Both the position numbers and the translations under genes were made by a program. A stretch of 64,000 nucleotides of DNA from a virus. Under the pieces are notes generated by a model, which made no database searches, was not told where the DNA came from, and saw only the letters and a list, made by a program, of their open reading frames with translations. The stretch lies in the IMG/VR virus record IMGVR_UViG_3300042397_001782, positions 32,001 through 96,000 of that record; one strand, given 5' to 3'. Positions 2,162 to 28,060 of the stretch are shown here, piece after piece; the first letter of the stretch is position 1, and each line of letters starts with the position of its first letter.

Positions 2162-4081
2162 TTATTGCTTAATAATTTTTGATACTAATACTCCTTTATT
2201 ATTTAGGAGTAATTTTGCTGTATAAACTCCTGCTGATAAGTTTCCTAAATCTGCTCTATAAGTGAATTGCCCTTTAGCAACAAGTTCGTCTAACACTTTA
2301 ATACGCAAACTTCCCAACATATCATATACCGCCAATGTGGCATTTGTGCTTTCTTCTACATTAAAAACAATATCTATAATTCCAGTTGTAGGATTTGGAT
2401 AAACTTCCATAGTGTTAGCATCTATAATTCTACCAATATTAGTGGGAGACATTTTTCTAACTTGTATAATATTATGACTAGGAGTTATAGATAAATCTTT
2501 TGAGGTAAAGTTTCCTGCAAATTTATTAGAGGTGAATAGAGGACTCACACCCCAATCTGCTTGTGGTTTCAAAGCTATAAATTGGAAAGTGATTATTTCA
2601 TCTCCATTTTTTAAAGCATTGTTATTAGTGGTAGGATCATAGCCTCCCCAAGATATTTCTCCTTCATTAGGGTTCACATAAGTAATCCATTTTTGAGCAT
2701 TTGCACTTGAATAGATTCCTTTGAAAGATAATAAGCTACTATCATATTTCAATCCAAATTGCAAAGCTAATACACTAACACTATCTGACTTTAAACTTAC
2801 AGGAATGCTAACCATATTTCCTTCGTTAACATTTAACTTAGGAATAGTTAATTCAATATTATTTGTTGGGAAGTCATATTCCACTCTAGTGTCAATAACT
2901 CTATGAGTTTGTGGGTCTAAGTCTTGCGGACCATTTATAAGGATTTCCATTGGAGTTGTTCTAGCCATATTGTATCCCGTAGAGTTGGCATCTCCAGGAA
3001 CCACTACATAATATGTAACCGAGTCAGGTTGTCCTGGTAATATATCAAAGTAAAAATTAGTTACACCTGAAATAGTTGATGTATAGTTTGTTGTAGGCGT
3101 TCCTGTAATTGTAGCATATTCTGCTGCTGTAAAGAATTTAATATCTTTTACATTATTAGACCAACTTGTTATTCTTCCTGCCACTCTTCCAAATACTCCA
3201 AAAGCATCCGCCACTGTAATATTAGAGTTTCCATTTACATCCGCTGTATAGAAATCAAAATCTTTCGGAGTACCAACTCCTAACACCCATTGGTTAATCA
3301 ATTGAGCGTCTGTTGTAGATACTACATTACCTACACCCATTGTATCTCCTTTAACAGCCAATCTAACATCCCAGAATGTTGTATCTAATATTTCTGAGAA
3401 TGAGAATTTACCTGATGTATTAGTTTTATAAGAGTTTACTTGAGTCCAAGATGACCCTGCTTTAGGCTTCTTTTCTAAAGATAAAGTTAAATTTTTAGCT
3501 CCAGTTCCATTCACATTTGCGAATGTACCTTTGAAGCTAAGTTTCGGTCTTTTGAATTCTCCATTATAACTGTATAGTCCTAAAGTTGTGTCCATCCCTG
3601 CTTGTGTAGAAGCATATTGTGGAAAGGTAGATACTCCTGAAAATTTCAAAGAGTCTATAAAAGTTAAATTATTAAAAATAGATGGAGCAGCATGTGTAAG
3701 AGTAAGTTCAAAAGTCTCTCCATTAGCAAGGGAATAAGCACTACTATTACCTGTATAAATTAATGTTATAGTTGAAAATCCATTTATAGAATCCGTTACA
3801 TATTGTAAATCAAGATTGGTTGTACTTCCCACTAAGCTAACCACTGAGTTTTTAAAAGCAACTTTGTCATAAAAAACTCTGAATTGCACACCTGTTACTT
3901 TTGTAGTGGTGGTATTTTTTAATGTAACTCTTGCTTTTGTAAATCCTTGTGTAGTTGTTCCTACATTATAAGCGGTGTCAATTAATGCCCATATTCCGCT
4001 GGAAGGTGCTGCTGGACCTGTCTGTCCATAAATGTTCATACAAGCTAACAAGCTTATAATCAATAATTTAAGTGTTTTCAT
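2162..4081 (-). CDS. Secreted cohesin + dockerin-like protein with T9SS C-terminal sorting domain
   Basis: Signal peptide; two cohesin-like segments (VTGVQFRVFYD; VSIPVSL..VLALQFGLKYDSSLLSF); dockerin/EF-hand-like STTDAQLINQWVLG...ADVNGNSNITVADA; T9SS CTD VYPNPTTG...VYDMLG...LSAGVY...KIIKQ. Confidence 0.8.
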   Translation of the reverse strand: MKTLKLLIISLLACMNIYGQTGPAAPSSGIWALIDTAYNVGTTTQGFTKARVTLKNTTTTKVTGVQFRVFYDKVAFKNSVVSLVGSTTNLDLQYVTDSINGFSTITLIYTGNSSAYSLANGETFELTLTHAAPSIFNNLTFIDSLKFSGVSTFPQYASTQAGMDTTLGLYSYNGEFKRPKLSFKGTFANVNGTGAKNLTLSLEKKPKAGSSWTQVNSYKTNTSGKFSFSEILDTTFWDVRLAVKGDTMGVGNVVSTTDAQLINQWVLGVGTPKDFDFYTADVNGNSNITVADAFGVFGRVAGRITSWSNNVKDIKFFTAAEYATITGTPTTNYTSTISGVTNFYFDILPGQPDSVTYYVVVPGDANSTGYNMARTTPMEILINGPQDLDPQTHRVIDTRVEYDFPTNNIELTIPKLNVNEGNMVSIPVSLKSDSVSVLALQFGLKYDSSLLSFKGIYSSANAQKWITYVNPNEGEISWGGYDPTTNNNALKNGDEIITFQFIALKPQADWGVSPLFTSNKFAGNFTSKDLSITPSHNIIQVRKMSPTNIGRIIDANTMEVYPNPTTGIIDIVFNVEESTNATLAVYDMLGSLRIKVLDELVAKGQFTYRADLGNLSAGVYTAKLLLNNKGVLVSKIIKQ

Positions 4082-12805: not shown

Positions 12806-13681
12806 TTAGAAAAAAGTTAAGCTATCTTCTTCAGGGATTTCTTGCCAATCATTTTCAATGTACTTGTCAATCTTATCCAAAGTTTCTTCTAAAATACGTT
12901 TACCTTCCATCTCGTCTTTATAAGATAGGGGGTATACCAGCACACTATCTACTTTGGTAGAATTGCATACCACCCAATGAAAAGTTTTTAGCACATAATG
13001 GTTCAAATCATTTTTCTCCATCCAGTCTTCCACCCCTTTTGTATACAAAGCCCCCTGTAAGTGATACAAATATTTTTGCACACTATCAGGAAATTTCGGA
13101 GGGTAGCTGCTGGATTTCAAATCAGTGATAATAATCTCTTGTCTATCATGATCCACTTTTAAATAATCTGTCTTTATAAAAAAGTTATATCCTCTGTATT
13201 GAAAACTCCACTCAAACTGAGCCTTACCATTACTGAATAAATAGGTGGCTTCTCTATCTTTTAGCACATTATTGGCAATAGAGGTTCCTAATTCAAAATT
13301 AGGTTTTAGAAACTTACCTTTTGGATTTTTTGCATATTCAATATATTCAGGAAACTCCAGAACGGATTCTTTTATTTTCTCAAAATTCTTAGATTTCACA
13401 TCTAATATACCACAAACCTTTTCTAAGTTTTCCGCAGAGAGGTCGTAGTTATACTCCTCTGTAAAAATATTTTCAATAATAGCCTTAATTTGAGGCTTTG
13501 GGATAGGAATATCTATAATAGTTTCAGTGATAGGCTCATCAAAAACTATCTTATCTATAATAGACCCTTTCTCTAAAGCATTGTTTCTTTTGTATACAGG
13601 GTTTAAAAATCCTTGTACTCCTTCTTTTATAAGTCTAGTGAGAGAACTATAACTTAATCTGTCTTTTTCTTTATTAAACAT
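12806..13681 (-). CDS. PD-(D/E)XK exonuclease (RecB/Cas4-like)
   Basis: LSYSSL, KTDYL, TDLKSS, YHLQGALY; TAnnTTTG at 13702-13709. Confidence 0.8.
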   Translation of the reverse strand: MFNKEKDRLSYSSLTRLIKEGVQGFLNPVYKRNNALEKGSIIDKIVFDEPITETIIDIPIPKPQIKAIIENIFTEEYNYDLSAENLEKVCGILDVKSKNFEKIKESVLEFPEYIEYAKNPKGKFLKPNFELGTSIANNVLKDREATYLFSNGKAQFEWSFQYRGYNFFIKTDYLKVDHDRQEIIITDLKSSSYPPKFPDSVQKYLYHLQGALYTKGVEDWMEKNDLNHYVLKTFHWVVCNSTKVDSVLVYPLSYKDEMEGKRILEETLDKIDKYIENDWQEIPEEDSLTFF

Positions 13682-13720
13682 AATTATTATTTTTTTAGGT
13701 GCAAATGTATTATTTTTTTT

Positions 13721-13903
13721 TCAAAATGGGCAATATTCTTTTTTGCTTTTTTCTTTAAGGTCATCATAATCACGCTCTATTTTTTCTTTGATTGCATTCC
13801 TAACAAACTGCGAAACATTTACGTTATATCCTTTTAATTTATCTAAGGTTTGCTTTTGCTCTTTTGATATTCTTATGTTTAATATTTCGGTATTTATTGG
13901 CAT
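13721..13903 (-). CDS. Ribbon-helix-helix-like small DNA-binding protein
   Basis: LNIRISKEQKQTL...NVSQFVRNAIKEKI pattern. Confidence 0.65.
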   Translation of the reverse strand: MPINTEILNIRISKEQKQTLDKLKGYNVNVSQFVRNAIKEKIERDYDDLKEKSKKEYCPF

Positions 13904-13945
13904 TTAAGTTTAATTTGTGTTACAAAAATTTCGTAAAGCATCGAG

Positions 13946-14179
13946 TTAGTGATAATATTTCTTTAAGTAGTCAAAAAGTTGTTGTCCTTCTTCAATGTAT
14001 ATCGTATTGAAAGTTCCATTACTTTTTGTTGTTTTTATACTTATATTAGTTTCACCAACTTTTACCCTAACTTTTTCGTAATCCTTCGTTTCAAAAGAAA
14101 TACTATCACTAACATCAGATATATGTAATTTTTCATTACTCTTATCTAAGTTTTGTTCTAAATTTTTACTTTCTCCCAT
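13946..14179 (-). CDS. Cassette 1 hypothetical protein
   Basis: ATG inside the attC-like loop; stop TAA is the complement of TTA in the GTTAG core at 13945. Confidence 0.7.
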   Translation of the reverse strand: MGESKNLEQNLDKSNEKLHISDVSDSISFETKDYEKVRVKVGETNISIKTTKSNGTFNTIYIEEGQQLFDYLKKYYH

Positions 14180-14226
14180 TTTATTAAATTTTGTGTTAAA
14201 ACTACATATATCTGTGACCGTTAGCG
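14107..14226 (+). repeat. attC-like site A
   Basis: CACTAAC-at-CAGATATATGTAATTTT ... AAAACTACATATATCTG-tgacc-GTTAGCG. Confidence 0.8.
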
Positions 14227-14922
14227 GTTATTCTGAAAGAACGCCTCTGCAAATCCTGCAGAACACATTGAACGAATATCCGCATCACATTTTATTTTAT
14301 CTTTTGCCCATTGCATTTCGGGAATCAAATCCACCGCTGACTTATGTAAAAATGCAAGTGCAGGTTTTGGTCTTCCTGGTCTTATATAAAGTTTATCGTT
14401 TTTAGGCACTTTATTCCAATCAGTATATTTCTTTTCAGGTATATTAAATTCTCCCCATAAAGCCGTTTTTTTAGTCCAAGGGCTTCCGTATTCCCAAGGT
14501 TGATAAACAAGTTTAGGTTTACCTAAAAACTCTTTTAATCTACCATTTGCTGGATTTTCAATTACCCACCATTTAGGTTTTGCTTCTTTAATAATTCGTA
14601 AACAATGATTTACTAAAAACATTCCTTTTTCTAAATCGTTTTGTTTATGAAATCCATTTGCGGTTGAAAATTCAGTACACACAGGATTTGCAATTATACC
14701 ATAAACATTTGGCGGTGGGTTATAATTTTCTACACCTATTTCTTCGCCTATCATTATAACTTCGTATTCATCAGATAATTGGTAAAATAAACTATCACTA
14801 CCTAAATCAGCACATAAGTGAAGTATAATTTTAGGAGAAGAACAACCGCTAACACTGCATATACGCAATGTGGGGTTTAGTGCTTCAACAACGTTTTCGT
14901 TTTCAAATAAACTTTTCTGCAT
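14221..14922 (-). CDS. Short C5-cytosine DNA methyltransferase-like protein (cassette 2)
   Basis: ILHLCADLGS (motif I variant), ANPVCTEFS (motif IV), VIENP (motif VI). Confidence 0.75.
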   Translation of the reverse strand: MQKSLFENENVVEALNPTLRICSVSGCSSPKIILHLCADLGSDSLFYQLSDEYEVIMIGEEIGVENYNPPPNVYGIIANPVCTEFSTANGFHKQNDLEKGMFLVNHCLRIIKEAKPKWWVIENPANGRLKEFLGKPKLVYQPWEYGSPWTKKTALWGEFNIPEKKYTDWNKVPKNDKLYIRPGRPKPALAFLHKSAVDLIPEMQWAKDKIKCDADIRSMCSAGFAEAFFQNNR

Positions 14923-14977
14923 AATTTAAAATTTAGTTTTCATAATCCCACACTGCGTATATGCTTTTACGTTATAG
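14847..14977 (+). repeat. attC-like site B
   Basis: CGCTAAC-act-GCATATACGCAATGTGGG ... CCCACACTGCGTATATGC-ttttac-GTTATAG. Confidence 0.8.
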
Positions 14978-15010
14978 GTAAGTGCTACAACCATTCTTCG
15001 ATTAAACATT

Positions 15011-16120
15011 TTAGTTAGAAAAATCATTAAAAATTTCCCCTCCTTTTAAAAAAGAAAAAATATGAGCAATCACATCTACTGTCCAGCCATCACCCAAAAG
15101 ACAAGCTGCATCGTTTCTTTTTAAAATTCTTGTATATCCTTCGGGAACGGTTTGTAATCTTTCTAATTCTGTTTGTGTAAAGTATCTCAAATCACCATCT
15201 TGAAAAACAAAGTATTGGTTATTTCTTAAAAGGCAATTTGATTTATCTTTCATTGATCTACCTCTTCTTGTTTCGCTTGTTGGATAACTCAAATCAACTG
15301 CTTCATTATTTCCAATATCTACAAATCCAATTTTAGTAGCTTCTTTTACTCTTAAAAATGTTTCTTTGTCTTTTGCCACAAGCGTAATAAATCCTTTTTC
15401 TAAAAATCTATGAGCCATTTTGTGTTGGCTTTTTAATGGTCTGCTTTCACTTTCTAAAATGCAAACACTTTTTTTCCTATCTGTATATCCACTTTCAAGT
15501 ATATCCTGCAATTTTATTTTTTTGTCTTTTGGCTGTGGTATTTTGCAATATCTAAATCCAAATAAATCAAAATCTTCCGGACCTATATTTGTCCAATAAA
15601 ATCTATTCCTCATTTGTGCTGAAACTAATTCGCTGTTTATGTTTACAGGATATGTTCCTAAATATTGGCTTATTAATTCCATATCCTTATCAGTCATTGA
15701 TACATTTTCAAGTAAAAAATATTTTGGTTTGCATTCTTTTAGCAATCTCAAGTATTCAAAAAATAAACCGCTTTTTGCACCTTCAAGTCCTTTACGTTCT
15801 TTATTTGCAAGACTAAAATCTTGACAAGGACTTCCACCTATCAATAAATCAATTTGTGGTAAATCACTTGCTTTTACATCTAATACGCTACCTAATTGTA
15901 TTGTATTTGGAAAATTGTGTTGAGTTACTTTTATTGCGTGTGGTTTTATTTCACTTGCAAAGTATTGATTAACTTTTATTCCTGCCTTTTGTAAAGCTAA
16001 TTGACCACAAGACATACCATCGAAAAGAGATAGTACATTTAAACCCGTACTGCCTGTAACAGGTGTTTGGCAAAAGCTGGGCTTCTGTGCTAAATCAAAG
16101 TTTGTACTTTCTATAATCAT
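15011..16120 (-). CDS. dcm: C5-cytosine DNA methyltransferase (cassette 3)
   Basis: LSLFDGMSCG, GGSPCQDFS, LENV, RNRFYW, LGDGWT. Confidence 0.93.
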   Translation of the reverse strand: MIIESTNFDLAQKPSFCQTPVTGSTGLNVLSLFDGMSCGQLALQKAGIKVNQYFASEIKPHAIKVTQHNFPNTIQLGSVLDVKASDLPQIDLLIGGSPCQDFSLANKERKGLEGAKSGLFFEYLRLLKECKPKYFLLENVSMTDKDMELISQYLGTYPVNINSELVSAQMRNRFYWTNIGPEDFDLFGFRYCKIPQPKDKKIKLQDILESGYTDRKKSVCILESESRPLKSQHKMAHRFLEKGFITLVAKDKETFLRVKEATKIGFVDIGNNEAVDLSYPTSETRRGRSMKDKSNCLLRNNQYFVFQDGDLRYFTQTELERLQTVPEGYTRILKRNDAACLLGDGWTVDVIAHIFSFLKGGEIFNDFSN

Positions 16121-16199
16121 TTGTTTTAAATTTAAAGTTTAGTTCTTTGGTTAAGCATTTGTAGTAGCCACGCCTTCGCCAAGCCCGAAACCGTTATGC
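16054..16199 (+). repeat. attC-like site C
   Basis: CTGTAAC...TTGGCAAAAGCTGGGCT ... AGCCACGCCTTCGCCAA...GTTATGC (imperfect inverted repeat). Confidence 0.72.
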
Positions 16200-16460
16200 A
16201 CTAGCTTTATTCAATGACTTTAAATTGTACTGCTCTGGCATTTTTTTTGCCTTTACTAACTTATAATACCATATCGCAACGCCATCTTTGTACCCCTCTA
16301 AAATAGTGTCTATTTTCCATTCAAATGAACGTCTTAGTGCCATTACCCTCGCTCCTACGTTGTTTGCTTTACATTTTTTTTTCATGTCATGAATGTAGCT
16401 TTTTTTGTTTTCCTTTAGATACGCTGCTACTAAGTAAGTAGAATTTAATTGCTTTTTCAT
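16194..16460 (-). CDS. Small winged-HTH-like protein
   Basis: NVGARVMALRR..WKIDT pattern; stop codon overlaps the GTTA core at 16193. Confidence 0.55.
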   Translation of the reverse strand: MKKQLNSTYLVAAYLKENKKSYIHDMKKKCKANNVGARVMALRRSFEWKIDTILEGYKDGVAIWYYKLVKAKKMPEQYNLKSLNKASA

Positions 16461-16494
16461 TCTTTTAGTTTTTAGTTGGTTAATTTATTGGAAA

Positions 16495-16776
16495 TTAATT
16501 TTTAAATAATTCATTTATATTTTTTGCAGATTCAAAATCATTCATTGAATTAGCAAATTCCTCAAGAACTCCTTTTGGTGTGAAACATATAGTTACATCG
16601 TATACTTTATTATTGCACCCTACTTCTGCTAAATATGCAGTTAATCCATTTTCAGGAAGTTCAGTTTCTTTTGCAATATCCATAAAAACATTCATTGTTT
16701 TTATTGTCAATACTTTACTCATGTCTTCTTGACTATTTATTTTTTTATTACCTGTGAATTTTTCCATTTTACTCAT
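16495..16776 (-). CDS. Hypothetical protein
   Basis: Co-oriented packed ORF. Confidence 0.65.
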   Translation of the reverse strand: MSKMEKFTGNKKINSQEDMSKVLTIKTMNVFMDIAKETELPENGLTAYLAEVGCNNKVYDVTICFTPKGVLEEFANSMNDFESAKNINELFKN

Positions 16777-16777
16777 A

Positions 16778-17839
16778 TTAATTTTTATTTTTACTAAGGT
16801 TAACTACTGCTATCTTATCTTTAAATTTATCCATACCATTCAACACCCACTTTTCTTCTAAAGTTCCCTCAGCTACTAAGAAATATATAAAACTTTTCTC
16901 ATGTACTGCTATCCTGCAAAATCTTCCGATAAGTTGTTCTTTTGATGAAGGAGAACTATCTATTCCTAGCACAAATCCATACTTTAAATTTGGTATACTA
17001 ACGGATTCTTTTAGGATTCCTACATTTACTAGTCTACCTGATTCAGAGTGATAGAACTCATCATAGTTTTTCTTCTTAGTTTTATTATCCATAGAAGAAT
17101 TAAATTGAGAAAACCCAAAACTAGCACCTTGCTCAATACTTCCTGCATATATTAATAACTTTTTATCCGAAAATTTCTCATTAATTAGTCTATTAGCTAG
17201 AGCCACTTTGCTAGGCAATGTATTTAAGAACTGCTTCAGTTTGCCTAATTCAGGAGGGTAGGATTCATTATATGGAGATGTTAAATAATTTTTGTGATGA
17301 TAATCATAAACACTTTTTTCTTCAGGAGTCATCTTATACTTAACCACAACCATTTGAAAATTATTCAATAAATTATTATCAATAGCATTATTGATAAGGT
17401 AGGAATAACAAATAGGAAAGTATTTGTGAATTTCATGAGTATTGCTTGGAGTACCTGTAAGTCCTAGAATAGATACCGCAGGGTTTATTCTCATAAGTCT
17501 CAAACAATTTTCCAATATAAGATCTTTTTCCTTGTGCATTTCATCTATAATAATCAAATCGTACTTTTCGTTGTAATTTTTCAAAGATTTATTGCATATA
17601 AAGGTAATGTTAGTTTCCAAACAACCCCATTTAGTTAATTCATCTTTAAAGTTTTTAATATAAATTTGTCTTGCACCACTAAATAAAATTTTACAATAAG
17701 GGTTAGTACTTCTATAGTGTTTAATAATATCAATAGCACACTTTGTCTTTCCCATTCCTACCGCTAGAGCAATAGTGGATCTTCTATCTTTAGAGGATAG
17801 GAAAGCGTTTACTGCTTTTTCCTGGACTTCTGCTTTCAT
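16778..17839 (-). CDS. Superfamily 2 (DExH) helicase
   Basis: GMGKT, DEMH, GLTGT, QLIGR. Confidence 0.88.
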   Translation of the reverse strand: MKAEVQEKAVNAFLSSKDRRSTIALAVGMGKTKCAIDIIKHYRSTNPYCKILFSGARQIYIKNFKDELTKWGCLETNITFICNKSLKNYNEKYDLIIIDEMHKEKDLILENCLRLMRINPAVSILGLTGTPSNTHEIHKYFPICYSYLINNAIDNNLLNNFQMVVVKYKMTPEEKSVYDYHHKNYLTSPYNESYPPELGKLKQFLNTLPSKVALANRLINEKFSDKKLLIYAGSIEQGASFGFSQFNSSMDNKTKKKNYDEFYHSESGRLVNVGILKESVSIPNLKYGFVLGIDSSPSSKEQLIGRFCRIAVHEKSFIYFLVAEGTLEEKWVLNGMDKFKDKIAVVNLSKNKN

Positions 17840-25936: not shown

Positions 25937-26608
25937 TTAAGACTTTTTAGCTATGGTATAAACATCAAAAGTTTTTCCCGATGCTATTGTTTTGAACTCA
26001 TAGCCTAATTTTTCAAATATTCTAGGATAGCACGAAACGCCAACGCCTCCCTCAATACTCGGAGTTATTCCGTAGCCACTACCATAGCCGAAAATATCCC
26101 TATTTTCTTTGTCTAAATTATCATTCTTTATTGAATATAGGGGCTTTAATACCTCATTAATTTGATTCAGACAATTAGCCACAGACGTACTTTGTTTATC
26201 GTACCCGCACCCGCTTACACTACCCGAAAATACTTTGTTTGTTCTCGTATTGCCTTCTATATCTTTGTAGCTATAAACACACTCAGCCGATGGGTTCATT
26301 CCCCACGTTTTAGATTTTTTCCACTCTATCAATATTTGAGCCTCGATAAATTCCCCCGCCTTGCCAATGGTTAAGACTTGATTAACTTGTCTCTCTATGC
26401 TCTTAAATACTTGCTTTTCTTTACGCTTGATTAAATAGGCTTTAGCCTCCTCTAGCGTTGATTCTTTTAGGCTTTTTCCCTTTGGGAGTAGATTATTATA
26501 GTACCAAATGTCAAGGTCTTGCACCTCGTTAATTTTTTCTAGGTCTGTGATAAAATCGGTTAACCTTGTTTTTTCTTTTGCCTCTATGGCTTTTATTATA
26601 TTTCTCAT
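25937..26608 (-). CDS. Hypothetical early protein
   Basis: SGCGYDKQSTSVA...GGVGVSC. Confidence 0.75.
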   Translation of the reverse strand: MRNIIKAIEAKEKTRLTDFITDLEKINEVQDLDIWYYNNLLPKGKSLKESTLEEAKAYLIKRKEKQVFKSIERQVNQVLTIGKAGEFIEAQILIEWKKSKTWGMNPSAECVYSYKDIEGNTRTNKVFSGSVSGCGYDKQSTSVANCLNQINEVLKPLYSIKNDNLDKENRDIFGYGSGYGITPSIEGGVGVSCYPRIFEKLGYEFKTIASGKTFDVYTIAKKS

Positions 26609-26669
26609 TCTATCCCGTTTATTTATTCAGTTTTGACGGGTTACTGGGTTTTTAATTTAAAGATATTAA

Positions 26670-26834
26670 TTATTTATTATTTTGTTTTATTCCTGTTATA
26701 CACTCTATATAGTTTTTTGTTGGCTTACCCTTACAAGCCTCCATAGCGTTTCTATATTCTATTTGTTTAAATAGATACATCATCGAACATAACGCTAAAA
26801 AGAATAGTATTGTTTTTATTATGTCTTTTTTCAT
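26670..26834 (-). CDS. First leftward gene, small TM protein
   Basis: Start MKKDIIK at 26834, downstream of the promoter. Confidence 0.6.
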   Translation of the reverse strand: MKKDIIKTILFFLALCSMMYLFKQIEYRNAMEACKGKPTKNYIECITGIKQNNK

Positions 26835-26868
26835 ATTGATTATATTTATTTGGTTATGAATTATAGTG

Positions 26869-26899
26869 CAAAGATAGTACATATACAGAACTTGTCAAG
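26869..26899 (-). promoter_or_regulatory. Leftward Bacteroidetes sigma-A promoter
   Basis: -7 TATCTTTG (26869-26876) with TTG about 19 bp upstream. Confidence 0.7.
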
Positions 26900-28060
26900 C
26901 CCCCTAGACGTTAAAGATTGTAAAAAGATATTAATAAATGTAAACTAAAAGATCGCCCCTTTCTTAACACAATTTAACGAAACCACGCATATAACATTCT
27001 AAACTAAATACCCCCAATTATCTTGTTAAACTTTGTTAATGTTTCAGAGATCTATAATAGTATTTTGCTATATCTAAGCTACTAGGATATTGATATGTAA
27101 ATAGGCTTTAATGGGTGGATAGGGGCGAGAGTGGGTATAATAGGTCACTTACCCTTACCCACCAGAAAATAATCGCTTAGAACGCCTCTAATGAGATAAT
27201 GTATAAATATATTCGGACAAATTTGTCTTTTTTTCCTACTGCTAGTTGCACTCCTCCCGTTTTCCCGCCCCTACTTTGCCCCTCCTCTGTACTTTGCACC
27301 CTGTCCGCCCTACTTTGTCCCGCCCTCAATATCCCGCCCCTGTATTGTGCGGGGATATGTAGCCACCCCACCCTATATATATTATTCTATTAGAACTCCC
27401 CTCCCCCCTCCGCCCTATGTATATACCCCGCCCTATATATACCCGCCTATGGATATTCTGTATACTAGTAGATAGACAGACAGACAGACTAGACAGACAG
27501 AGAAACCCTAGAGACTATAGACTAGAGACTAGTCCACCACCACCCGCCCCCAGTCCACAGACTAGGCACAACGCCCACGCCCTAGAGATATTCCCCAAAA
27601 CTATTTCTCGCTAATGGAAAACCGAGTTTTTGGAATTTATGGGAGGGTATTTGAAAATTGGGTCATGCATACGGGCTATGTTATTGATACACCCCACTTT
27701 TCATTCTCACATAACATACGGGGGGATAGTTTTTTTGTTCTACTGGGGGGGATATGATTTTGGGTAGGGCTAAAAAAATTTTAGGGGGGTGGGGGGTGTA
27801 TAAAAAATAAAAAATTAGGGGGAGATTTTCGGGGGTTTGGTTATAGGTAAAACTTGCATATAAATAATTAAAGAAGCGTTAAAAAAAGTACCTAGGAAAA
27901 TCAAGGGTTCCGAGAGGGTGAAAGTACATTTTTGTACTTTTCGTGTACATTTTTGTACTTTTGACCCGCTGAAACCCGCATTTCTTCGTTGAGGGGTTTT
28001 TGGAAAAGGGTGTGATAAATGTGTAAAATAAATTCTTTCTAATAGAAAAATAATTCTTGC
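26900..28060. other. Non-coding divergence region; putative origin or terminus region
   Basis: No credible ORFs; C-rich block with CCGCCC repeats then a G-rich block; AGAC microsatellite; 18-bp direct repeats. Confidence 0.6.
27924..27962. repeat. Two 18-bp iteron-like direct repeats GTACATTTTTGTACTTTT
   Basis: Copies at 27924 and 27945, 21-bp period, each internally palindromic. Confidence 0.85.

Follow-up and report, generated by a model that had tools for sequence, protein, structure and literature searches.

The window analysed here is a stretch of 64,000 nucleotides (nt), bases 32001-96000 of one 119,980-bp IMG/VR virus record (IMGVR_UViG_3300042397_001782) that CheckV rates as complete. 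The locus under study lies at 13945-16200 of the window, between a helicase gene and the genes for an exonuclease and a DNA polymerase, and holds three minus-strand genes, each headed by a long hairpin (E1, E2 and E3). A preliminary description had taken this locus for an integron-like cassette array through which a phage swaps genes. This claim is supported by a covariance model of the hairpins, by breakpoints in related phages and by bacteria in which hairpins of this family lie next to a recombinase, and we consider it likely that 13945-16200 is a recombinase-less array of three mobile gene cassettes in an integron-like system of Bacteroidota and their phages.

Hairpins, boxes and genes at the locus

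All three stems are bordered by TAAC ... GTTA, so that the invariant AAC and GTT of attC-type sites are present. The arms of E1 (17 nt) and E2 (21 nt) are 94% and 90% complementary, respectively, and the arm sequences of the three hairpins are unrelated to one another. Folded as DNA, E1 and E2 reach z = -3.7 to -3.9 on both strands. In integrons, extrahelical bases mark the recombining bottom strand. The stems of E1 and E2 are ungapped, and the strand asymmetry that is seen consists of a conserved G.T wobble together with the G.T pair of TAACG and TGTTA that closes the outer stem; a bulge was noticed by eye in one relative only (L012).

Read in gene sense, each cassette follows one layout: a G, a spacer of 4-5 nt, the stem, a loop of ~65 nt with the start codon, the return stem, a spacer of 2-3 nt, GTTAxxxxxx, the gene body and xxxxxxTAA. 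The hairpins, box pairs, start codons and stops of the preliminary description are all present in the sequence. The three ATGs lie inside the loops, the peptides LHISDVS, LRICSVSG and FCQTPVTG are encoded as described, and the stops at 13946, 14221 and 16194 fall in TAAC cores. Each box 3' of a hairpin complements the box at the far end of its own cassette (19/20, 10/10 and 8/10 for cassettes 1 to 3). The pair at 13945/14104 extends beyond the ten matching positions first claimed for it, to 20 nt at 95%, and the pairs at 14220/14844 and 14971/16051 are as claimed, the latter with two differences that are both G.T on the plus strand. The cargo, two DNA methyltransferases and one small gene without a family, would most likely shield the phage DNA from host restriction. 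The coordinates are collected in Table 1.

Table 1. Features of the array and its flanks (window coordinates)
Feature	Position	Strand	Details
Cassette 1, 275 nt (E1 + 77-aa open reading frame)	13946-14220	-	bracketed by a 20-nt, 95% (19/20) inverted repeat, box pair 13945-13964 / 14094-14113
Cassette 2, 751 nt (E2 + 233-aa gene)	14221-14971	-	box pair 14220-14229 / 14844-14853, 10/10
Cassette 3, 1222 nt (E3 + 369-aa gene)	14972-16193	-	box pair 14971-14980 / 16051-16060, 8/10
Hairpin E1	14104-14231	-	stems 14116-14132 / 14198-14214; ATG 14179 in 65-nt loop
Hairpin E2	14844-14982	-	stems 14857-14877 / 14944-14964; ATG 14922 in 66-nt loop
Hairpin E3	16051-16204	-	imperfect CTTGGCGAAG / TTTTGCCAA-type stem; ATG 16120 in loop
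attI-like backbone flank	13905-13944	-	directly 3' of the last cassette's TAAC; in gene sense TAAC^TCGATGCTTTACG... (caret, junction)
77-aa open reading frame in cassette 1	13946-14179	-	no Pfam or PHROG family
C5-methyltransferase-like gene, 233 aa, in cassette 2	14221-14922	-	phrog_757 DNA methyltransferase, 3e-28; PF00145 weak, below cut-off
C5 cytosine DNA methyltransferase, 369 aa, in cassette 3	15011-16120	-	PF00145, 5e-38; phrog_116
88-aa gene, upstream array border	16194-16460	-	stop in terminal TAAC core; no family
Ribbon-helix-helix (RHH) protein, 60 aa	13721-13903	-	DUF6290 / CcdA-like; adjoins attI-like end
Exonuclease VIII-like PD-(D/E)XK nuclease	12806-13681	-	Pfam/PHROG; followed by family A DNA polymerase
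Helicase	16778-17839	-	Pfam/PHROG match

The hairpin family and its breakpoints

The covariance model, R1, was built from 14 elements (2 from phage and 12 from bacterial contigs), none of them from the window. RNAalifold places 18 consensus pairs in these sequences, 14 of which have changes on both sides and are thus compensatory, and one pair is G.U in 13 of the 14; judging from the alignment, the hairpin structure is under selection. On the window (E <= 10), R1 gives four matches, which are E2 (102.6 bits, E 2.3e-22), E3 (70.4 bits, 1.1e-14) and E1 (37.7 bits, 6.8e-7) on the minus strand and a weak plus-strand echo of E2. The other 56 kb of the phage genome contain no match to the model. Thirteen other phage loci yield 50 gene-sense matches, along with 3 opposite-strand echoes of the strongest ones; the gene-sense sites fall in hemulen6-1 (14), sniff9-2 (13), mumin6-1 (11), the relatives of the window (8), LR756500 (3) and Polaribacter phage P12002L (1). 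In gene sense, members of the family have xxxxxxTAACG and, after 4-5 nt, a stem of 15-22 bp whose two arms enclose a loop; 0-2 nt separate the return arm from TGTTAxxxxxx. The loops are of a long type (~65-76 nt) or a short type (10-45 nt). E1-E3 belong to this TAACG-stem-loop-stem-TGTTA family of Flavobacteriia phages and Bacteroidota chromosomes, and the source phage is a freshwater Bacteroidota phage of Flavobacterium type.

Each hairpin also has matches of its own. Matches of ~80% to E2 stand at the 5' ends of annotated methyltransferase genes in 27 Baltic Flavobacterium phage records. The same anatomy recurs in hemulen6-1, where the arms change compensatorily while the loop is kept, and where the gene behind the E2-like hairpin is annotated as PF01555 and not as the C5 family. 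E3 has matches in 17 Flavobacterium phage records. The 84.8% match of E1 over 105 nt in the uncultured huge phage LR756500.1 (L002, 3001-3105) was dropped as a structural homologue, as its left arm is not complementary and R1 gives it no score; it keeps the E1-like loop, the right arm and the GTTAGTG box, and seems to be a site in decay that continues to provide a start codon. Among known RNA families, Rfam at E <= 1 on 13500-16800 returned only RF02625 (Wolbachia sRNA 46), which aligns at full length with E2 (14841-14982, minus strand) at 26.3 bits against a gathering threshold of 65.3 (E 0.029). We set this sub-threshold match aside as probably a resemblance between AT-rich hairpins, which leaves no known RNA family in the region; Rfam holds no attC family. 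Inspected by eye, the E2 loop (14881-14943) and the loops of the bacterial alignment look like ~72 nt made of about four tandem units of ~18 nt, and the units of long-type loops share a GAAGCAC/GAAAAC word and TTCAA/TTGAA half-sites across phage and chromosomal elements. The conserved leader peptide MQKSLFENEN may be a by-product of putative DNA-level binding sites.

The phage's own lineage comprises 12 IMG/VR contigs (L006-L017) that encode the same helicase at 77-100% identity. Eight of the 12 were inspected as sequence; L007 and L009 were equated with L006, and L014 and L016 with L013 and L015, by block coordinates. Five contigs (L013-L016 and L017) lack the whole region, the helicase stop being followed directly by the nuclease ATG, and L011 has neither the array nor the RHH gene. 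The L006/L007/L009 type, L008, L010 and L012 each carry different cassettes. Five different last cassettes (window, L008, L006 type, L010 and L012) join the same backbone at TAAC^TCG. At the opposite border, the end of the 88-aa gene, ...GTGCATAAC (in L008, ...GTGCCTAAC), has four different sequences after its TAAC in the window, L008, L006 and L010. Further perfect 10/10 box pairs occur in L006 and L008 (GTTAGCTGCC/GGCAGCTAAC, GTTATATGCC/GGCATATAAC and GTTAGGCGAT/ATCGCCTAAC).

Recent exchange is visible in Flavobacterium phages, in which blocks of 97-99.9% identity are broken by replaced segments. Their upstream joints lie right after TAACG, with one TTTCTTATAAC followed by three different hairpins, and their downstream joints lie right after TAAC, with one hairpin preceded by three different boxes. 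In mumin6-1 that hairpin is fused straight to the TTTCTTATAAC of the upstream flank, an empty join, and three different last cassettes meet the backbone of these phages at TAAC^TACAATATT. Contig breaks at 13949, 14110, 14223, 16057 and 16188/16190 in Logan contigs of four lake metagenomes are supportive only. Logan joints at 13695-13869, 14133-14198, 15730-15845 and 15736-15821 are not at cassette cores and were not used as evidence.

Cassette 2 can be followed as a travelling unit. With its protein as query, 22 viral contigs were retrieved, of which 21 were compared at the DNA level and 12 reach the 3' end. In 11 of these 12, homology to the window ends at 14217-14220, and in the twelfth it ends at 14209; with the window included, there are ten different right neighbours after AACCGCTAAC. 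At the hairpin side, homology sets in precisely with the TGTTA box (14854) for 4 loci and within 14858-14965 for another 5, and the whole E2 hairpin is common to the window and L119 only. Comparison with related phages had been named beforehand as the test that could refute the cassette reading, and the boundaries of indels and replacements fall on the GTT/AAC cores. Gain, loss and replacement in the compared sequences support cassette boundaries at G^TT.

Other changes are seen in the relatives. A ~26-nt direct repeat, made of the helicase 3' end and an A-rich leader, flanks a two-gene insertion upstream of the array in L006 (~2850-2880 and 3530-3560) and also in L011; this insertion looks like duplication or homologous recombination and not like exchange at a core site. 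At 9505-9600 of L010, a tRNA-like gene, reported by ARAGORN as tRNA-??? with a four-letter anticodon, replaces part of the region of a 93-aa gene.

The array has a recurrent neighbour in the RHH gene. This gene is found in array-bearing relatives (window, L006 type, L008 and L012), is mostly deleted in L010, and is absent from L011 and from L013-L017, which have no array. Its position is where intI would be in an integron, and a 65-aa gene without a family occupies the equivalent place in hemulen6-1. The phage genome as a whole has 31% G+C, and the genes of the window lie on the minus strand up to ~27 kb. A switch of coding strand and of GC skew occurs at ~26000-28000, where G+C has a local peak (0.377), and this part of the window may be a divergent promoter or origin region.

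Strand polarity and recombinase-linked arrays in Bacteroidota

According to the recent joints, the crossover falls on the gene-sense strand, in its 5' TAA^C box, and therefore a hairpin stays with the gene downstream of it; hairpin and gene travel as one mobile unit in recent events only. Genes of the phage loci lie on the hairpin strand in 25 cases and on the opposite strand in none, so that the classical order, in which an open reading frame is followed by its attC site, occurs neither in the window nor in any of the 25 scored phage intervals, all of which have the gene after the hairpin. The TAA^C crossovers and this uniform orientation uphold the earlier claim of genes antisense to the top strand of attC, the gene-sense strand corresponding to the bottom strand of an integron.

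The stems also carry a strand bias. Positions that depart from Watson-Crick pairing, read on the TAACG strand, are G.T more often than C.A, with counts of 51 against 15 for the phage loci and 218 against 68 for the bacterial ones. Where bacterial arrays have their genes opposite, it is still the TAACG strand that shows the excess of G.T (106 against 33, summed by hand), which argues that the selected fold is one of single-stranded DNA and not of mRNA.

The bacterial members of the family are numerous. A pattern for the E3-type stem occurs in 93 stretches of one-genome-per-species contigs, ~83 of which are titled Bacteroidota; the number expected by chance is ~0.1, an estimate that takes 24 fixed bases and 31 gap lengths over 596 Gb and assumes a uniform base composition. 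Carriers include isolates of Pedobacter, Flavobacterium, Dyadobacter, Pontibacter, Nibrella, Arcicella and Spirosoma. Forty blocks hold at least two elements, always mostly on one strand, and box pairs of at least 9/10 occur in 60 of 81 bacterial intervals and in 11 of 26 phage intervals. Some loci are of the phage type, with genes on the TAACG strand (L019, L092 and L072, for example), and others are of a chromosomal type, with genes opposite and thus in the classical order of open reading frame, then site (such as L096, L043, L022, L023, L026, L031 and L074). Recombinase-linked bacterial arrays mostly have the classical gene order.

In a Saprospiraceae genome, a ~16-kb array ends beside a tyrosine recombinase. 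Of 96 bacterial 8-kb blocks, 9 contain homologous tyrosine recombinases; one of these is a 33% match, and its block carries the title Bacillota. In each of the seven arrays examined, the enzyme is encoded 3' of the bottom-strand array and on the strand opposite to it, and hence upstream of the cassette genes and co-directional with them. These enzymes contain PF00589 and PF13495; they score 203-229 bits on NF040815 (cut-off 220) and fall below the cut-offs of the XerC and XerD models. The array termini next to these host enzymes have TAAC^T and then a TATA(C)-like word, which is also what the phage array ends show. Proteins of ~117 aa with a CxxC...FCxxxC N-terminus flank the arrays of a Pedobacter isolate (L096, 4383-4736, minus strand) and of a Saprospiraceae genome (L112, 4822-5178, plus strand); the two are 26% identical (E 1.5e-8), match no Pfam or NCBIfam family, and could be an accessory factor or a mere neighbour. 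Inside the array of Pedobacter ginsengiterrae, three minus-strand open reading frames (L043, 2347-3420) look, by eye, like an insertion-sequence transposase.

The phage itself encodes no such enzyme among the families searched. The 119,980-bp genome has no match to PF00589, PF01797 or PF00239, the search being confined to these three families, and the absence of an integrase noted in the preliminary description therefore extends to the whole genome. In addition, tblastn with the bacterial array recombinase was negative both for the phage genome and for 9 phage loci. The proposed action of a recombinase in trans is plausible in that the same hairpin family stands beside Xer/IntI-like recombinases in Bacteroidota; none of these is tied to the actual host of the phage.

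Interpretation, rival explanations and known systems

In the reading that we favour, the gene-sense (bottom) strand would fold as single-stranded DNA, and a host-supplied Xer/IntI-like tyrosine recombinase would cut and exchange the folded strand at TAA^C. Cassettes would be inserted at the TAAC^T end beside the RHH gene, and would be excised or replaced. In a circularised cassette, the two boxes of the cassette itself would close the hairpin into a long stem.

Several observations weigh against a mobile cassette array of this kind. E3 folds weakly as DNA (z = -1.3 and -0.7), so that the folding of both strands proposed as a check bears out E1 and E2 and gives little for E3. None of the four plus-strand cores (GTTAGTG, GTTAGCG, GTTATAG and GTTATGC) fits GTTRRRY / RYYYAAC. 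The array-linked recombinases reach 204-206 bits on TIGR02249, in two aligned stretches, against a cut-off of 265; L043 and some other bacterial arrays have no recombinase within the 8-kb block, and none of the recombinases found is tied to this phage's actual host. Most of the 22 listed Logan loose ends lie away from the cassette cores. No cassette circle, split read or event of recombination came to light, the sequencing-run material being assembled contigs, which cannot show circles, split reads or frequencies. Not every joint is at a core, either. In relatives, the left arm and half the loop of E3 are joined to another gene at 16133, and one Flavobacterium phage event, in mumin6-1, crosses inside the box and leaves a partial arm; both joints are plainly not site-specific. 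Moreover, the same cassette-2 body with its own boxes stands behind at least six different hairpins, and in Flavobacterium suncheonense a protein that is 91% identical over residues 16-233 is encoded behind another hairpin, its GTTAGCGGTT box being the same. Because the body occurs behind different hairpins, exchange must also take place at the second (3') core, which the one-cut classical integron model does not explain. We speculate that the recombinase may be capable of acting on either arm, which would account for it, as the circle closed by a cassette's own boxes would form whichever arm was cut.

Counts of the generic motifs are no help to this reading. There are 23 TAAC-hairpin-GTTA candidates against 20.5 in shuffled sequence, 5 exact 10/10 GTTA..TAAC pairs within 4 kb against 8.6, and 108 box pairs with at most one mismatch against 137.8. 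Among the 23 candidates, arms of at least 17 nt belong to the two reported hairpins only. With the counts at chance level, we have dropped them as evidence, and the case rests on position and comparison. That the elements are chance inverted repeats in AT-rich DNA, as genome-wide counts equal to those of shuffled sequence might suggest, nevertheless deserves almost no credence. The matches of an independent model (E 2e-22, 1e-14 and 7e-7) are confined to three places, and homologous elements with compensatory changes occur in dozens of phages and bacteria. The compensatory pairs, the R1 matches and the cassette-2 breakpoints rule out a chance arrangement.

A weightier rival, though in our judgement an unlikely one, holds that the hairpins are conserved regulatory modules similar to the promoter/terminator stem-loops (PeSLs) of T4-type phages, and that the cassettes arose through homologous or short-homology recombination, perhaps via the phage's exonuclease VIII-like nuclease, with no site-specific recombinase. 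Hairpin types and loops are indeed common to different genes, some junctions lie inside a loop or box, hairpins are swapped relative to gene bodies, and a PD-(D/E)XK exonuclease VIII-like protein is encoded beside the array; the PeSL mini-circles offer a precedent, according to the accessible text of PMC2839356. Against this explanation, E1-E3 have no common arm sequence, and the unrelated arms leave little homology to recombine. Genomes that are ~99% identical break at TAAC^G between non-homologous flanks, homologous exchange does not predict cassette-specific complementary boxes, and in bacteria the same family stands in fixed geometry beside a dedicated tyrosine recombinase. The strand bias and the breakpoints also bear on a further and still less probable explanation, in which the hairpins act in mRNA only, controlling translation or processing with the start codon in the loop and a long-range pairing that closes the cistron, DNA mobility being incidental. 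The folded strand is the mRNA strand in the phage, the stem mismatches are compatible with G.U, and the loops hold start codons with A-rich leaders in a conserved sequence, all of which would suit such a role. However, in bacterial arrays the TAACG strand keeps both the G.T bias and the conserved wobble although the genes are encoded opposite to it, so that the fold under selection cannot be one of mRNA in those arrays, and core breakpoints, empty joins and the fixed recombinase link are left unexplained. The hairpins may have an added RNA role in phages.

Two other mobile systems were set aside. IS200/IS605 elements have a Y1 HUH transposase and subterminal hairpins at both ends. A transposon of this type is not indicated here, with no PF01797 match and one hairpin per cassette. 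PeSLs were described by Arbiol et al. (2010, PMC2839356) as stem-loops that flank accessory genes in hyperplastic regions of T4-type phages, with modular shuffling and detected small circles. In the accessible text of that paper they are near-identical promoter-terminator units recombining by homology, whereas the hairpins here differ, have their own complementary boxes and break at cores of 4-5 nt. We did not retain PeSL-like cassettes, as the three elements have unrelated arms and are not near-identical units.

Integrons are the textbook gene-capture system. The locus resembles classical integrons in its imperfect hairpin sites with AAC/GTT cores, in the complementarity between the first bases of a cassette and its own inverse core, in a crossover that could lie at G^TT (AA^C when read on the bottom strand that folds), in a strand-specific fold, in an attI-like array end, and in site types common within a lineage. 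It differs in lacking IntI, and the array-linked host enzyme is below the TIGR02249 cut-off. A conserved G.T wobble is present in the stems, the bacterial arrays have a recombinase co-directional with their cassettes, the phage gene follows the hairpin, and hairpins are also exchanged at a second core. Furthermore, the cores lie outside GTTRRRY, the consensus given in the accessible part of PMC9892861, and the box pairs are 10-20 nt long. In Bacteroidota, where integrons are considered rare, according to the available text of the IntegronFinder 2.0 preprint (10.1101/2022.02.28.482270), only In0 elements were known earlier, plus one complete integron in Salinibacter.

In phages, integrons pass for a curiosity. 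The closest precedents are the clusters of attC sites lacking integrases (CALINs) of phages. Using attC models, Qi et al. (2023, PMC9892861) found 17 CALINs among 10,705 phage genomes, with cargo enriched in orphan DNA methyltransferases; in the portion available, the CALIN found in Polaribacter phage P12002L, a virulent phage, is reported to hold two methyltransferases, and one of its attC sites to be recombined by IntI1. In P12002L we find elements that share the TAACG ... TGTTA core and have 6/3 spacers around its methyltransferase gene gp54, and family elements around gp53 as well; these may be the published attC1 and attC2. The array of the window is like these CALINs, as far as that text describes them, in being a set of attC-like sites in a phage without an integrase and with methyltransferase cargo; the hairpin family, its spread among Flavobacteriia phages, the turnover at cores, the flipped polarity, the starts in loops and the link to a Bacteroidota recombinase are not described in the same text. 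A literature search, with most subscription journals outside its scope, turned up no publication that connects methyltransferase cassettes of phages with the recombinase arrays of Bacteroidota, and within that scope no account of flipped polarity, start codons in loops or turnover at cores.

On the bacterial side, a comparable arrangement is that of the recombinase-associated rAID-1 arrays, in which integron-like repeats adjoin a XerD-like recombinase and immunity genes in gut Bacteroidales (Ross et al. 2019, 10.1101/471110; accessible text). Membership is defined there by a recombinase at least 44% identical to the Bacteroides fragilis reference. As described, its geometry of recombinase and array is that of the bacterial arrays with our hairpin family in 7 of the 7 examined, and kinship with rAID-1 may be considered a lead on this ground. 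The same text describes rAID-1 neither for phages nor for methyltransferases, and the phage studied here has no recombinase.

Together, these comparisons allow a broader proposal, which we hold with distinct reserve and which may well prove wrong in part. Bacteroidota and their phages might have in common an IntI-free analogue of the integron, in which one family of folded single-stranded DNA sites (TAACG-stem-loop-stem-TGTTA) is served by an Xer/IntI-like host recombinase. Chromosomes would store promoterless cassettes in the classical order, and phages would keep a separate, flipped pool in which the recombination hairpin would also serve as the translation start region and encode the N-terminus of the protein. 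In contrast to integrons, either arm would be exchangeable, so that hairpins and gene bodies would reassort independently.

The locus and its relatives constitute a well-defined second family of cassette sites, found beside a different tyrosine recombinase in Bacteroidota chromosomes. The family is common in Flavobacteriia phages, with 11 to 14 R1 sites per 12 kb in three Baltic isolates. A recombination hairpin inside a coding region, where it supplies the start codon, poses a design question in its own right. The plating efficiency of the same Baltic phages has been linked to their methyltransferase content (Nilsson et al. 2020, PMC7077304; accessible text), and the array offers a concrete mechanism by which virulent aquatic phages could acquire and shed orphan methyltransferases and thereby alter their host range, in a system that is testable with cultured phage-host pairs. 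If our broader proposal is true, virulent phages without a recombinase would obtain a stock of plug-in methyltransferases matched to the restriction systems that local hosts possess.

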